Positions 53,392 to 60,662 of a DNA stretch of 64,000 nucleotides are shown here, piece by piece. Source of the DNA: a virus; IMG/VR virus record IMGVR_UViG_3300045988_098233, positions 1 through 64,000 of that record; one strand, given 5' to 3'. Position 1 is the stretch's first letter. Every line of letters starts with the position of its first letter. Position numbers and translations under genes: made by a program. The notes under the pieces are model-generated. The model was given only the letters and a program-made list of their open reading frames with translations. It did not search any database and was not told where the DNA came from.

Positions 53392-53517
53392 TTTGTTTGA
53401 GCGCTACGAGGCCCACCCCAACGAGGCGCGGATCACGGTAAACGGTGCCGCCCTGCTGAGTATCTGACAGCACCAGCAGAACAGCGACCCGGCTACACCG
53501 GGAGAAAGGACGAAATC

Positions 53518-53763
53518 ATGTTTACGATTTATTACAACAATGGATTGTTTGACGAGTGCGACGGCACTTTAGACGAGGCAAAAGCCATGGCCGACGAGTG
53601 CGCCGGCTATACGCAATGCGATATCTCAATCGAGGACGAAAACCGCGAAGAAGTGGCCCGGCGTAGATGGTACGGGGTCCCGTTCGACCCCTCCGAAACG
53701 GAAACCGACGAGGCGGACGTGATCCAGTTCGGCAACTTCGGATTTTTCGACCGCTGGGAGTAA
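53518..53763 (+). CDS. hypothetical acidic protein (81 aa)
   Basis: GAAAGGA RBS. Confidence 0.55.
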   Translation: MFTIYYNNGLFDECDGTLDEAKAMADECAGYTQCDISIEDENREEVARRRWYGVPFDPSETETDEADVIQFGNFGFFDRWE

Positions 53764-53821
53764 CAGAACAGCGGCCCAGGATCACCCCGGGCCGCTGAAC
53801 AGAAAAACGGAGGCTTGCGAA

Positions 53822-54373
53822 ATGGCAAGAGTCGAGATCACTTTAAAATGTGAGCACTGCGGGAAAGAGTTTGAACACATCCACATGTGCCGCAATTCCA
53901 CCGAGGCGGGATCTTATGAAGTCTGGGCGCGGGAAAACCTCGCCACCTGCCCCGCCTGCTACGCAGAACAGAAGAACGCGAAACGAGGCGCGGAGCTTTC
54001 CAGCTACATTTCCAGCTTCAGCGACCGGCACCCGCTGCCGGAAATAACCGGCGTTTCAGAAAAGCAAATTGCTTATGCTTCCAGCCTGCGGGAAAAATTC
54101 ATCTGCGATGAAATGTTGAAAACCCGGCTTGATGTAAACCGCTTTTTTGAAATCGCGGACAAGATCAAGCCGGAAAACTACGACGAAGCCGGGCGCGAAC
54201 TCATGCACAAGGCCGCAGCCGATGCCGGGAAGCCCTTTGAAATCTGGTTTACAGCTTACCGGGCGGAACGTCTCCGGCGCTATTTCGGCCTGATTTATGC
54301 CGCCGACGCTGCCAAAATCGAAACCATTTTCACAGAGAACAGCGCATCTAAAATTATTGACGCACTGAGATAG
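53822..54373 (+). CDS. hypothetical zinc-ribbon protein (183 aa)
   Basis: CEHCG..CPAC at the N-terminus, with a GGAGG RBS. Confidence 0.6.
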   Translation: MARVEITLKCEHCGKEFEHIHMCRNSTEAGSYEVWARENLATCPACYAEQKNAKRGAELSSYISSFSDRHPLPEITGVSEKQIAYASSLREKFICDEMLKTRLDVNRFFEIADKIKPENYDEAGRELMHKAAADAGKPFEIWFTAYRAERLRRYFGLIYAADAAKIETIFTENSASKIIDALR

Positions 54374-54390
54374 AACAGGAGGAAAAACAC

Positions 54391-54696
54391 ATGATCGCCC
54401 ATCTTTACAAGATCCCTTCAACCTTTCGGAACGTTCCCGACGCGGTGAAGGTCCGCGCGGTTCCCTTTGAAAATTTCCCCGGCACCTGGCTACATGCAAC
54501 GCTGAATTTGCCCGAAGGCCTCCGCGTGGCCGACTCAAAATACGGAGAAGGGGCATTTATCACGGAGTCCGGCGAGGTTATCGGCGAGGCATACGCCGAC
54601 CCTGAACAGATCACCGGCAACGAGCTTAAAGGCCGCGTTACTGTGCGGGACTCCGCCGGAAATTTTCTTATTGATACCGTTGTCATCTGGCAATGA
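54391..54696 (+). CDS. hypothetical protein (101 aa)
   Basis: AGGAGG RBS. Confidence 0.55.
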   Translation: MIAHLYKIPSTFRNVPDAVKVRAVPFENFPGTWLHATLNLPEGLRVADSKYGEGAFITESGEVIGEAYADPEQITGNELKGRVTVRDSAGNFLIDTVVIWQ

Positions 54697-54718
54697 TCCA
54701 TGAAAGCGAGGTAAAACC

Positions 54719-54931
54719 ATGCCCAGACCCAGAACCAGCGCAACCAGAACAGACGCCCAAAGACGGGCGGAAAACAAGTATAAAAACAAGGCGCAAATTG
54801 TGCTTGCCTGCCGTATGGACCGCCAGACGGGGGAACGCTATAAGGCCCTTTGTGCAGAACAGGGCACCACGCCCAACGCCGAAATCAAAGCCTTTATTCT
54901 TGCCCAGCTGGGCGAACAGCCCGACAACTAA
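54719..54931 (+). CDS. ribbon-helix-helix-like small protein (70 aa)
   Basis: Basic N-terminus followed by ..IVLACRMDRQTGERYKALCAEQGTTPNAEIKAFIL... Confidence 0.45.
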   Translation: MPRPRTSATRTDAQRRAENKYKNKAQIVLACRMDRQTGERYKALCAEQGTTPNAEIKAFILAQLGEQPDN

Positions 54932-54946
54932 CCCCAAAACGCAGAA

Positions 54947-59211: not shown

Positions 59212-59305
59212 ACAGCGGCAAAAACCCCCTTGGCACACTCTGCTACAATGAAATTAAAGACGAACAGCCCGCCCCAGAGGTACGAGGGCATGAAAGGACA
59301 ACCCC

Positions 59306-59521
59306 ATGTTTATGGTTTACTTCAAAGGTCCCAGAGACAAACAGCATAAGCCCATGAGCCTGAACACCGGCGAGCTGTTTAACCGCCTGGTTTATGCGCC
59401 CGTCTACAATGACAATCTTCTCCCCGCCGTGAAGTCATGGATCGACCTGAACAAAAAGAACGCCCCGGATTGTTCGATCCAGTGCCGCGTCCCCGGCACC
59501 TCGAAGATCCTATACGCCTGA
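59306..59521 (+). CDS. hypothetical protein (71 aa)
   Basis: GAAAGGA RBS. Confidence 0.5.
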   Translation: MFMVYFKGPRDKQHKPMSLNTGELFNRLVYAPVYNDNLLPAVKSWIDLNKKNAPDCSIQCRVPGTSKILYA

Positions 59522-59546
59522 ACAGCCGCACAGAAAGGAGAATACC

Positions 59547-59687
59547 ATGTACTTTCTCGAAAATTACCGCGGCTTTGGCGTATACCTGACTGGATCGGGA
59601 TATATCGCCCGTAACCGCGAAAGAATTTTAACCGCAAAGACATACGCCGAAATTATCCAGTGCATCAACCTCTGGACCTGCTGTTGA
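59547..59687 (+). CDS. possible small protein (46 aa)
   Basis: AAAGGAG RBS. Reads MYFLENYRGFGVYLTGSGYIARNRERIL... Confidence 0.35.
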   Translation: MYFLENYRGFGVYLTGSGYIARNRERILTAKTYAEIIQCINLWTCC

Positions 59688-59699
59688 AAGGAGCGCAAC

Positions 59700-59921
59700 A
59701 TGGCCGCAACCACAGCCCCCACAAGATACACGATTAACCGCGACGGAACCCTTGAAAAATGGTACATGGAGCATGACGACGGCGAGACCGTTTATCTTCG
59801 AAAAACCCCACGTCCAAAATGGAACTGTTGGATGAAGGAATTTCCCGCCGCCGAGGTTTACGAAACATACCACGCCGCAAGAAATGCGCAGAAAGGAGCA
59901 TTTACCCATGTTGAACACTGA
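59700..59921 (+). CDS. hypothetical protein (73 aa)
   Basis: AAAGGAG RBS. Confidence 0.5.
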   Translation: MAATTAPTRYTINRDGTLEKWYMEHDDGETVYLRKTPRPKWNCWMKEFPAAEVYETYHAARNAQKGAFTHVEH

Positions 59922-60636
59922 ACAGACCCTCACCCGCGTTTTGCAGATCGTCCACGCGCTGGACGAGGACGAAACCGCCATTTATACCGCCGTCAGCAAA
60001 AACCCCTATGAATGGGAAAAAGCCGTCGGTCCCATCCCCCAGCTGTATTTCTTAGAACAGGATCTCCGCCGCACGTTGGTGGAGGAAGCCGCCACAAAGT
60101 CTGGGCGCCGCTCCGCCTTTTTCGCCGCCCGCCGCATCTGCGACGCAGCCGTGGCTAAGAACAGCACCCGCCCCGCTTCACAGGGCTTCTGGATCGACGA
60201 GGAAGGCAAGCAGTGCGTCTGCGACGGGTACCGCGGCTTCCGCCTGAACAGCCCTATGGAGCTGACCGCCGCGCCGGAACTCAGCGCCGACGGTTCCCGG
60301 GTCAACCTGGCGCAGATCATAGCCCCCACCCGCAAGAACACCCTGCGTCTCACGCTCCCCTCCGTGACGGAGGTTCGGGCAAAAATCAAGACGGACCGTG
60401 CGGAATGGGCTGCCAAGCGCCACCGCAAGGGCGAAACCTTCTCCCCTTATTACGATTTCGGCCCCGGTCTCCCCAGAGTCAACCCAAACTATCTGATCGA
60501 CTTCCTTCAGCTTTTCCCCGACGGCGAAGCGTTCGCCTCTGAACAGAAGCCCTATATCACCCCCATCTATTTCCGGTCCGCCGACGGTGAAGGCATTCTC
60601 TGCCCCTGCCGCAAGGCCGCCGAAGCCGCCGCCTGA
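59908..60636 (+). CDS. DnaN (beta-clamp)-like protein fragment or paralogue (242 aa)
   Basis: The C-terminal ..VNPNYLIDFLQLFPDGEAF......PIYFRSADGEGILCPCR.. resembles the clamp domain III signature (NxxYLxDxL ... hhMPhR). Start at MLNTEQT with an AAAGGAG RBS. Confidence 0.45.
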   Translation: MLNTEQTLTRVLQIVHALDEDETAIYTAVSKNPYEWEKAVGPIPQLYFLEQDLRRTLVEEAATKSGRRSAFFAARRICDAAVAKNSTRPASQGFWIDEEGKQCVCDGYRGFRLNSPMELTAAPELSADGSRVNLAQIIAPTRKNTLRLTLPSVTEVRAKIKTDRAEWAAKRHRKGETFSPYYDFGPGLPRVNPNYLIDFLQLFPDGEAFASEQKPYITPIYFRSADGEGILCPCRKAAEAAA

Positions 60637-60662
60637 ACAGCGGCGCAGGAAAGGACCGTCCC

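Follow-up and report, generated by a model that had tools for sequence, protein, structure and literature searches.

A strict, strand-specific GAACAG motif crowds the coding strand of two adjacent accessory operons in a gut Clostridia prophage

We describe a short DNA word, GAACAG, that crowds the coding strand of two adjacent accessory operons in a temperate siphovirus-like prophage of Oscillospiraceae (gut Clostridia). The window that we analyzed is a stretch of 64,000 nucleotides (nt), positions 1 to 64,000 of the IMG/VR virus record IMGVR_UViG_3300045988_098233, and coordinates refer to it unless another contig is named. In the form CW-GAACAG, the motif occurs on the coding strand of these operons at about 25 times its chance level. 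It is real, strand-specific, frame-independent, and strict, and it is confined to the two operons, where it is concentrated at gene ends directly upstream of the next ribosome-binding site. Selection for the motif has been sufficient to reshape the choice of codons and amino acids in the domain that carries it. We call the two motif-bearing operons transcription units 1 and 2 (TU1, about 53.16-54.98 kb, and TU2, about 55.34 to at least 60.64 kb). The domain itself is as follows.

53477-60641, plus strand: motif-dense domain, with 44 copies of GAACAG, 28 of them in the full form C-W-GAACAG-V; no full form on the opposite strand

The first-pass annotation of this DNA had counted 44 plus-strand copies between 53479 and 60640, and an exact search gave the same number. 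The single minus-strand copy that it had noticed lies at 55034-55039 within the minus-strand open reading frame (ORF) 54980-55210; because this is the only minus-strand gene of the domain, the copy is again in the sense orientation. GAACAG is the commonest hexamer of the motif-dense region. The whole window has 96 copies on its two strands (33±5.5 in dinucleotide shuffles), 48 on the plus and 48 on the minus strand, and the sense-strand density is 6 per kb in the domain and 0.7-1.2 per kb elsewhere. The right boundary is as abrupt as had been described, since the next plus-strand copy after 60640 is found only at 61747; the patch 60660-61560 has two copies, both on the minus strand, and none on the plus strand. 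In the late genes, the antisense (plus) strand has a single copy where 7.4 are expected, i.e., the plus strand is depleted outside the domain, and there are only three full 9-mers CWGAACAGV. The middle genes show a mild excess, largely because of the DUF1351 gene (40184-40382, minus strand), which has five sense copies within 200 nt, including GGAACAGGAACAGCG, a Glu-Gln repeat. A host-like chromosomal fragment has 11 sense copies against 5.1-5.3 expected (about 2-fold) and 5 antisense copies against 4.9; this sample consists of 17 kb of coding DNA of an unidentified Firmicute, reached via an HU homologue, and may not represent the true host. Look-ups with TnpB and with the integrase yielded only phage contigs and a 2-kb contig, respectively.

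It had been claimed that the enrichment is not a bias of codons or dipeptides but a strand-specific signal at the nucleotide level. This is supported by shuffle tests and by the conservation of sites in relatives. A shuffle of synonymous codons that kept all proteins and drew on the codon pool of the domain itself left 14.5±2.5 copies (maximum of 23) in the coding sequences (CDS) of the domain, against 33 observed, and a shuffle of codon order left 4.3±1.8. The domain has 22 Glu-Gln pairs where 6.9 are expected, spelled GAA-CAG in 21 of the 22 cases, and 14 Asn-Ser pairs where 4.9 are expected, spelled G|AAC-AGC in 10 of the 14. Late genes are ordinary for Glu-Gln: 27 pairs are found where 25 are expected, and 12 of the 27 are spelled GAA-CAG. 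When every hexamer was scanned, GAACAG reached z=13.9 over 5.8 kb of the domain; the best hexamers outside the (GGC)n series reached z of about 7-8 in the late genes (27 kb), the middle genes (11 kb), and the host-like fragment (17 kb). An exact k-mer count with a control for composition had been named as the relevant check, and both the enrichment and the strand bias persist in these shuffles and in the hexamer scan.

Aligning the 44 sites against the local background gave the extended motif C-W-GAACAG-V: 31 sites have C at position -2, 37 have A or T at -1, and none has T at +1. On the 3' side, T is scarce over the next 10 nt or so. The window has 35 occurrences of the 9-mer CWGAACAGV where 2.9 are expected; 28 of them are in the domain, all on the plus strand, and the other 7 are scattered over the remaining 113 kb of strand. 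Among the 18 variants with one mismatch only GAACAC is enriched (8:1), and hence recognition is strict. As first reported, all three reading frames are represented, two of them heavily (21 copies read GAA-CAG, 11 xxG-AAC-AGx, and 1 xGA-ACA-Gxx), and some copies are intergenic: 5 lie between genes, 6 across stop codons, and 33 of the 44 (75%) inside genes. The number of stop-straddling copies refers to a list of nonoverlapping genes, and there is a seventh if ORF 59700-59921 is real. The intervals from one site to the next look Poisson-like, as if selection favored density over position. We found no hidden internal starts after the intragenic sites, and a search of the noncoding tRNA region for CTGTTC, which could indicate pairing with a small RNA, gave nothing convincing.

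The motif often overlaps stop codons. The TGA stops at 56764, 56998, 59209, 59519, and 60634 and the TAG at 54371, all listed in the first-pass annotation, are indeed present within the motif, and the related TGAACAA is found at the stop at 55681. We found a further case beyond that list, the TGA at 59919 of ORF 59700-59921, so that the stop codon lies inside the motif in 7 of the 15 domain genes. These gene-end copies are 12-22 nt ahead of the next start codon, directly 5' of the Shine-Dalgarno sequence, and GAACAG is found 5-20 nt upstream of nine start regions.

56763-56771, plus strand: gene end C-TGA-ACAG-A, 17 nt ahead of the next start codon
54373, 56999, 59210, 59520, 59920, and 60635, plus strand: equivalent copies of the motif overlapping stop codons

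Three junctions of the type CAGAACAGCGRCCC(GG) followed by hairpins had been proposed, and they are real (53477, 53764, and 54942). Each gene of TU1 is followed by CAGAACAGCGRCCCGG and a hairpin, the stem of which begins inside the motif. At the second junction, CAG in the first motif copy is base-paired to CTG in the second. The third ends in a T-run and is likely, from its sequence, to be the terminator of TU1.

53477-53510, plus strand: junction repeat CAGAACAGCGACCCGG and a short hairpin, directly 5' of the ribosome-binding site of gene 53518-53763
53764-53803, plus strand: junction repeat CAGAACAG[CGGCCC...GGGCCG]CTGAACAG, where two motif copies bracket a 13-bp stem
54942-54985, plus strand: junction repeat CAGAACAGCGACCCGG, which makes up the 5' arm of a 14-bp hairpin; a T-run comes after the hairpin

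No copy of GAACAG is found on the plus strand in the two promoter/operator regions (53.02-53.16 and 55.25-55.36 kb). The first has three operator-like direct repeats GTAAACCCC(A/T)T(A/G)TTT at 53030-53115 and a minus-strand promoter-like site at 53051-53023, and the leftward operon that departs from the 53.0-53.16 kb region encodes an N6/N4 methylase and has a DUF4406 gene. The second has, among its repeats, a near-consensus extended -10 promoter-like site at 55315-55342 (TAGACA-16-TGnTATAAT). Both sets of operator-like repeats (53030-53115 and 55250-55360) adjoin a small, divergently transcribed regulator-like gene.

53023-53160: divergent promoter/operator region separating TU1 from the leftward methylase operon; no plus-strand GAACAG
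55250-55360: second regulatory region, at the start of TU2, with four repeats of the type CTTAAYAAGT; no GAACAG
60663-61544, plus strand: two genes of lower GC content that form the right boundary of the domain; no motif on the plus strand and no visible terminator before them

The motif is retained in related phages. About 35 phage contigs encode a protein 83-96% identical to the 702-amino-acid protein of TU2 (described below), and they have 27-41 copies of GAACAG on the plus strand and 0-5 on the minus strand per 7 kb. In 28 close relatives the full 9-mer is found 15-25 times on the plus and 0-3 times on the minus strand. Of 1008 aligned sites, 891 (88%) are retained, where background hexamers would lead us to expect 705 (70%). 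A comparison with homologous regions had been suggested as a check, and retention above background indicates, at the level of sequence, that the motif is under purifying selection. Minus-strand genes embedded in the domains of relatives (2.3 kb, nonredundant) have no plus-strand copy and five sense copies. Where relatives carry segments without a counterpart in the window, the motif is mostly scarce (0.66 per kb). In one relative, L217, alternative TU1 genes are each followed by the same 16-nt CAGAACAGCGRCCCGG junction, and further copies lie inside these genes. A more distant phage, L091, shares with the window only part of the LPD25 protein, a 71-amino-acid gene (91% identity), and the 250-amino-acid gene (49% identity). 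It has 17 copies of GAACAG in 2.5 kb, some in nonhomologous sequence; its gene ends read TGAACAG and TGAACAGAACAG, and the 250-amino-acid homologue ends in TGAACAGAACAG. Phages that have in common with the window only the C-terminal domain of the 702-amino-acid protein, the 209-amino-acid protein, or the pair of 183- and 101-amino-acid proteins have no motif. We tried to identify the reader of the motif by co-occurrence, and the candidates were rejected: homologues of the 209-, 183-, and 101-amino-acid proteins and of the C-terminal primase-like domain occur in motif-free phages. A megablast search of the region against GenBank phages gave no match. Our literature searches returned nothing that connects GAACAG with Oscillospiraceae or with restriction or methylases, and one on Chi in Clostridia returned nothing usable.

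A second motif suggests that this case may not be isolated. In a distant clade (L204-L206, GC content of 0.46), the sense strand carries the motif [T]AAACAG[A/C]. L204 has 24 copies of AAACAG on the plus and 2 on the minus strand in 5.3 kb, a total of 26 against 5.3 in shuffles. They are spread over the three frames (7/5/6), number 18 in CDS, where shuffling the order of codons leaves 2.8, and overlap the stop codons of two genes ending in TAA-ACAG. The L204 module encodes an LPD29 polyvalent-type protein, two homologues of the zinc-ribbon protein of the domain, and a tyrosine recombinase. In L204-L206 the homologue of the 183-amino-acid zinc-ribbon protein, the only domain protein that we found to be shared with this clade, is 31% identical, and the N terminus of the LPD29 protein matches the last 50 residues of the 702-amino-acid protein.

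L204, 1215-6550: AAACAG region
L205, 4447-9186: AAACAG region
L206: AAACAG region

Other words are biased to one strand in related modules. Equivalent opposite-strand modules in further Oscillospiraceae phages have junction words of their own, rich in A and C. Those of L003 and L004 (about 7.7-12.5 kb) have 21-24 copies of CAAAAC on the plus and 0-3 on the minus strand, mostly in stretches from stop codon to Shine-Dalgarno sequence. The Faecalibacterium phage FP_Toutatis (L214, 5.6-12.4 kb) and L211 have 27-31 copies of CACGAAA/ACGAAA against 0-2, next to GGAGG. Weaker candidates are TTACAG in L211 and in the late genes of the window and CCGCAG in L190-L200. In the late genes, tTTACAGCa is found on the sense strand 12 times against 2.7 in a codon-order shuffle, in all three frames and with one antisense copy (e.g., 1324, 2460, 7651, 8003, 8368, 25124, and 27116, minus strand); over the whole window the TTACAG-type word is weak (24 against 14 in dinucleotide shuffles). 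We do not count TTACAG, CCGCAG, CAAAAC, and ACGAAA as firm analogues because their z of about 6.4-9 is in the range of the top hexamers of ordinary coding DNA. The AAACAG of L204 is the exception, because it is independent of frame and overlaps stop codons, and it is the strongest sign that these motifs form a class and are no accident. The strand-biased hexamers of the types (GCC)n, GACGGC, and GAGATC in relatives were rejected as effects of codons or dipeptides.

Nearly all proteins of the domain lack an assigned function, the 702-amino-acid protein being the exception. Small regulators of the ribbon-helix-helix (RHH) type are encoded among them, and the AlphaFold model of the 183-amino-acid protein has a pLDDT (predicted local distance difference test) of 94.8.

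53822-54373, plus strand: 183-amino-acid zinc-ribbon and helical protein; its stop TAG lies within TAGAACAG
54980-55210, minus strand: 76-amino-acid gene, the only minus-strand one in the domain (phrog_13890; weak MobA/RHH-like match)
57103-59211, plus strand: 702-amino-acid protein of the polyvalent type; 17 internal motif copies and one over the stop codon
59884-60636, plus strand: 250-amino-acid protein, function unassigned; 5 internal motif copies and one over the stop codon

The 702-amino-acid protein has an LPD25 domain (amino acids 202-296) and a C-terminal domain (amino acids 383-701) labeled "primase" in PHROGs, and many of the motif copies lie within its Pro/Thr/Ala/Glu/Gln-rich linker. 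The C-terminal domain is found in 395 plasmid records, 225 of them conjugative (e.g., in the giant proteins of Tn1549-like elements that are annotated as YodL or DUF4316), and in FP_Toutatis, where it is also labeled "primase". A Tn1549-like element and a Subdoligranulum plasmid with the same domain have GAACAG at or slightly above the baseline of their lineage. In pMG2200 (L215, a Tn1549-like vanB element), the conjugation genes at 8.8-28 kb have a GC content of 0.54, foreign to Enterococcus, and a sense density of about 1.6 per kb (about 31:8, a raw count), rising to 2.3 per kb in the gene of the giant YodL polyvalent protein; this is more than the lineage baseline and far less than in the phage domain. 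Upstream of the 702-amino-acid gene, at about 57008-57026, we found CCCGGACACCTTGGAGC, which resembles an intergenic element present six times in FP_Toutatis, in four copies as CCGGAYACCTTGAC(G/T)GGCCGCA, which contains TTGAC, and in two as the variant CGGACACCCCAGCAGGGCCGC. The same element as in FP_Toutatis lies upstream of the homologue of this gene in L004. This recurring element could represent a promoter present in several copies, or a feature of the RNA. On the other side of the divergent promoter, and adjoining it, a 128-amino-acid ORF (51769-52155, minus strand) has a homologue in related contigs with weak precomputed matches to Sigma70 region 4; hmmscan of the window protein itself gave nothing at E<=1e-3. 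Region-4 domains of extracytoplasmic function (ECF) sigma factors read GAAC-type -35 elements, and this sigma-region-4-like protein is a possible candidate for the reader of the motif.

How could such a motif work? We propose that C-W-GAACAG-V could be a cis-acting signal under positive selection that is read in the same direction as TU1 and TU2 are transcribed. It would act either on the mRNA or, as transcription proceeds, on the non-template strand. Its many copies would serve as recognition sites for a factor of strict sequence specificity, which would be an endoribonuclease or an RNA-binding protein and could come from the host or the phage. This factor would give the TU1 and TU2 transcripts a fate of their own: they could be processed where cistrons meet, decay at a set time, or be controlled in translation. 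With many independent sites the outcome would be fast and reliable, which would explain why density is selected over position. A titrator or repressor that binds duplex DNA would be indifferent to strand; hence a process that reads one strand is implied, whether it concerns the transcript, the non-template strand, or a tracking enzyme. A recognition site for a sequence-specific factor at the level of the transcript, or coupled to transcription, is the explanation we rank first, with a probability of about 0.3; action at the level of RNA or transcription, and a nuclease or binding protein as the reader, are inferences. The first-pass annotation had offered a Chi-like or polar DNA motif, a stoperator-like site, and an RNA-level signal. 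None of the three is proved: the RNA-level signal fits the geometry best, but no gene for a nuclease or RNA-binding protein was identified.

Several observations weigh against a signal read on the transcript. No RNase or RNA-binding protein was recognized among the domain proteins in Pfam, PHROGs, and NCBIfam, and the 183-amino-acid protein, the only one for which we searched the fold, has no match in PDB. No protein is common, within the DNA fetched, to all three motif-bearing groups (the clade of the window, L091, and the clade of L204). The predicted unpaired probability of the sites in RNA is 0.126, against a background mean of 0.127. The sister early operon at 47.7-53.0 kb is at the GAACAG baseline, and the final two genes on the same strand (60663-61544) have no motif. 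The late genes are not depleted on their sense strand (19 copies against 13.7 expected), as they could be if a nuclease were active late. Finally, the evidence that orientation follows transcription comes from one small gene family.

There is a reasonable possibility, still short of an even chance, that these are operon-wide, strand-specific "address" motifs of an undescribed class, marking polyvalent-protein modules derived from conjugative elements in phages of gut Clostridia, with the lineage variants GAACAG (here and in L091) and AAACAG (in L204-L206). A host or phage factor would then treat these transcripts, or this DNA, unlike the rest of the phage.

Next in our ranking, and unlikely, is a roadblock of the stoperator type, where a monomeric protein (the prophage repressor or a small RHH or helix-turn-helix [HTH] protein) would bind the asymmetric duplex C-W-GAACAG-V and stop RNA polymerase according to orientation, silencing the module in lysogens. 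Such a mechanism would suit a temperate phage with an integrase, a CI-like HTH protein, and small RHH-type regulators in the domain itself. It would also suit a site that is asymmetric and strict, that frequently overlaps stop codons, and whose orientation is tied to the direction of transcription (44:1 in the domain, and none on the plus strand against five sense copies in the embedded minus-strand genes of relatives). However, stoperators span 13 bp and this site has only 8-9 positions that are informative, 33 of its 44 copies are intragenic, and a density of 6 per kb, attained by altering protein sequences, is far above the needs of a roadblock. The promoter regions lack the motif and carry other operator-like repeats, 28 of the 35 full motifs lie within 7 kb instead of being dispersed over the prophage, and we detected no homologue of a stoperator-type repressor. 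Also unlikely, and ranked just after, is a Chi-like or other polar DNA motif for a host tracking enzyme (AddAB/RecBCD, a helicase-nuclease, or a translocase), in which a dense island would halt the degradation of phage DNA or orient the translocase, and GAACAG and AAACAG would correspond to different hosts. The strict, short, and polar form, the apparent selection for density, and the one-base variant in a clade of different GC content are all compatible with it. So is the absence of a protein common to all motif groups, which fits a reader encoded by the host, and so is the position of the domain on the C-rich strand: if the skew reports the direction of replication, the orientation would suit an enzyme chasing a rolling-circle tail. 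Yet the enrichment is local to 7 kb, the plus strand is depleted elsewhere (as seen in the late genes), and the motif changes orientation where the genes do, both at 53 kb and in the minus-strand gene embedded in the domain. The host-like fragment has only the modest sense excess given above (11 against 5.3) and none on the antisense strand. The contig ends are scattered, so that no fixed physical terminus of the genome is found next to the domain, and the terminase genes are 25 kb away.

Three further explanations were tested and are largely excluded. The motif could be a cassette-junction or recombination signal, providing microhomology or the core of a recombinase site for gene swapping between phages. 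Breakpoints of homology do lie close to sites more often than random positions would (30% of clusters have a site within 12 nt, compared with 15±5%), but this excess arises because sites lie at gene ends, and 3 of the 12 intragenic breakpoints are near a site, roughly the number to be expected from 10 sites per kb. The 16-nt junction shared by TU1 genes, including the alternatives in L217, and the tyrosine recombinase in the AAACAG region of L204 would fit such a signal. However, 75% of the sites are intragenic, where recombination would destroy genes, the alternative segments of relatives mostly lack the motif, and at the junctions direct repeats flank the hairpin, without inverted cores of the attC type. 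We rate recombination as improbable. Very improbable is the evasion of an orientation-dependent restriction or defense system (Type III, Type ISP, or BREX) that would recognize GAACAG and leave one-strand copies uncut. Such sites are biased to one strand in the case of CAGCAG in phage T7, and GAACAG, asymmetric, of 6 bp, and with an A at position 5, is what we would presume a Type III, Type ISP, or BREX site to look like. But evasion predicts orientation bias or avoidance, not an 8-fold over-representation, and the 48 copies on each strand of the window mean that inverted pairs exist, contrary to this explanation. The least probable of all is a by-product of linkers rich in Glu-Gln and Asn-Ser combined with the C-rich, G-poor codon usage of a head-on module. 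It draws on the many copies in the linker of the 702-amino-acid protein, on the domain's own codon usage, and on a mild preference for GAA-CAG elsewhere (in the middle genes, where it spells 10 of 14 Glu-Gln pairs, and in the host-like fragment). It fails to account for the 33 in-CDS copies that exceed the synonymous shuffle, for the 11 copies that are intergenic or straddle stops, for the heavy use of two frames, for the conserved flanks at -2, -1, and +1, and for the retention of sites above background.

The rest of the phage provides the context of these operons.

1-29 kb, minus strand: tape-measure, portal, and terminase genes, the terminase being 25 kb from the domain
35-42 kb: replication-recombination block with RecT, YqaJ, SSB, and G39P-like genes
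45.8-47.4 kb: CI-like HTH gene (45783-46235) and integrase

An attachment site, or prophage-host junction, lies directly downstream of the integrase gene (47420-47730 in the window, about 2.7-2.95 kb in L217). The contig of one relative stops at 47424 (compare the start of L024), and in a 222-kb host contig with the prophage (ERZ28664414 scaffold_35), which yielded only 2.7 kb of host flank, host genes (peptidase M23/M50 and a CLC channel) adjoin the gene of the leftward operon that encodes a 181-amino-acid protein (about 47.7 kb). The domain is transcribed opposite to the rest of the phage. Its skew at third codon positions (GC3 skew) is -0.35, against +0.04 in the late and +0.15 in the middle genes, and its Ala, Pro, and Gly codons shift from endings in G toward endings in C. 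The plus strand is C-rich across the window whatever the direction of the genes, and therefore the domain looks like long-standing head-on DNA; judging from composition, the skew looks like a replication-type mutational skew of the DNA strand. The (GCC)n hexamers CCGCCG, CGCCGC, and GCCGCC are likewise strongly biased to the plus strand over the whole window (CGCCGC is found 122:15 in 1-44 kb). A TnpB gene (IS605 OrfB, with a Cas12f-like TNB domain) lies at 29046-30164 on the minus strand, just upstream of the terminase genes; since an identical TnpB is in the same place in all related contigs returned, it appears to be fixed or domesticated, not a transient insertion sequence. Three tRNA-like units on the plus strand (62099-62168, 62327-62390, and 62565-62640) share the ends GCAGACG...CGTCTGCACCA and are found beside normal genes for tRNA-Gly(CCC) and tRNA-Gln(TTG). 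The third alone scores as a tRNA in Rfam (51 bits), without a call by ARAGORN, and has a Shine-Dalgarno-like anticodon region, CCAGGAGGT.

The motif, 9 nt long, takes up about 1 in 160 positions of a 7-kb block, in several frames and at the expense of Glu-Gln and Asn-Ser usage, and it is held in place across dozens of phage lineages. So strongly selected a signal must have an important reader. The block is likely an early, counter-defense module of abundant prophages of human-gut Oscillospiraceae, and it includes a domain otherwise typical of conjugative elements. The reader, if found, could reveal a new layer of gene control in phages, an interface of host-phage conflict (a nuclease and its decoy or target), or a new polar DNA motif for an unstudied bacterial group. 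The motif can be removed by synonymous recoding, which makes the signal directly testable.

The comparison with known systems puts the motif in perspective. RegB of phage T4 targets GGAG in early mRNAs, and its sites are the Shine-Dalgarno sequences themselves; MazF-type interferases have pentad or heptad sites that are unusually abundant in particular mRNAs. By analogy, GAACAG would resemble these targets as a short, strict, sense-strand motif, independent of frame, in defined transcripts and near translation initiation regions. It differs from RegB sites in being directly upstream of the Shine-Dalgarno sequence and mostly intragenic, and cleavage would here be only a proposal. Profile searches of the window proteins found no homologue of RegB or MazF. 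Repeats at cistron junctions beside ribosome-binding sites are also known from the start-associated sequences (SAS) of Cluster K and from repeated ribosome-binding-site cassettes. The junction repeats of L003/L004 (CAAAAC) and FP_Toutatis (CACGAAA), next to GGAGG, are exactly of this kind; GAACAG has in common with them its presence at junctions, but it is mainly intragenic, in several frames, and outside the ribosome-binding site. Chi, the FtsK-orienting polar sequences (KOPS), and the SpoIIIE recognition sequences (SRS) are short, strict, strand-specific, and variable between species, and their recognition is probabilistic, so that number matters. GAACAG is equally short, strict, and strand-specific, but those motifs are genome-wide and follow replication, whereas GAACAG is local (7 kb), follows gene direction, and lies on the C-rich strand. 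Integron attC sites are imperfect inverted repeats with the complementary cores RYYYAAC ... GTTRRRY after each cassette; here direct GAACAG repeats flank a GC hairpin and there is no inverse core of the GTTC type. A parallel in layout is that of the stoperators of Cluster A mycobacteriophages, which are dispersed, asymmetric, oriented with transcription, and often located at gene ends or stop codons of temperate phages (PMC9283540). Stoperators (of the L5 gp71 type) are 13 bp long, number about 20-35 per 50-kb genome, are nearly all intergenic, and have the same sequence as the operator of the early promoter. Unlike them, GAACAG has 8-9 nt, occurs 44 times in 7 kb, is three-quarters intragenic, bends amino acid usage, keeps off the promoters, and is restricted to two operons. 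None of the known families compared here (stoperators, Chi, Type III sites, and RegB targets) as yet accounts for the motif, which belongs among the dispersed, orientation-biased cis motifs of phage genomes.

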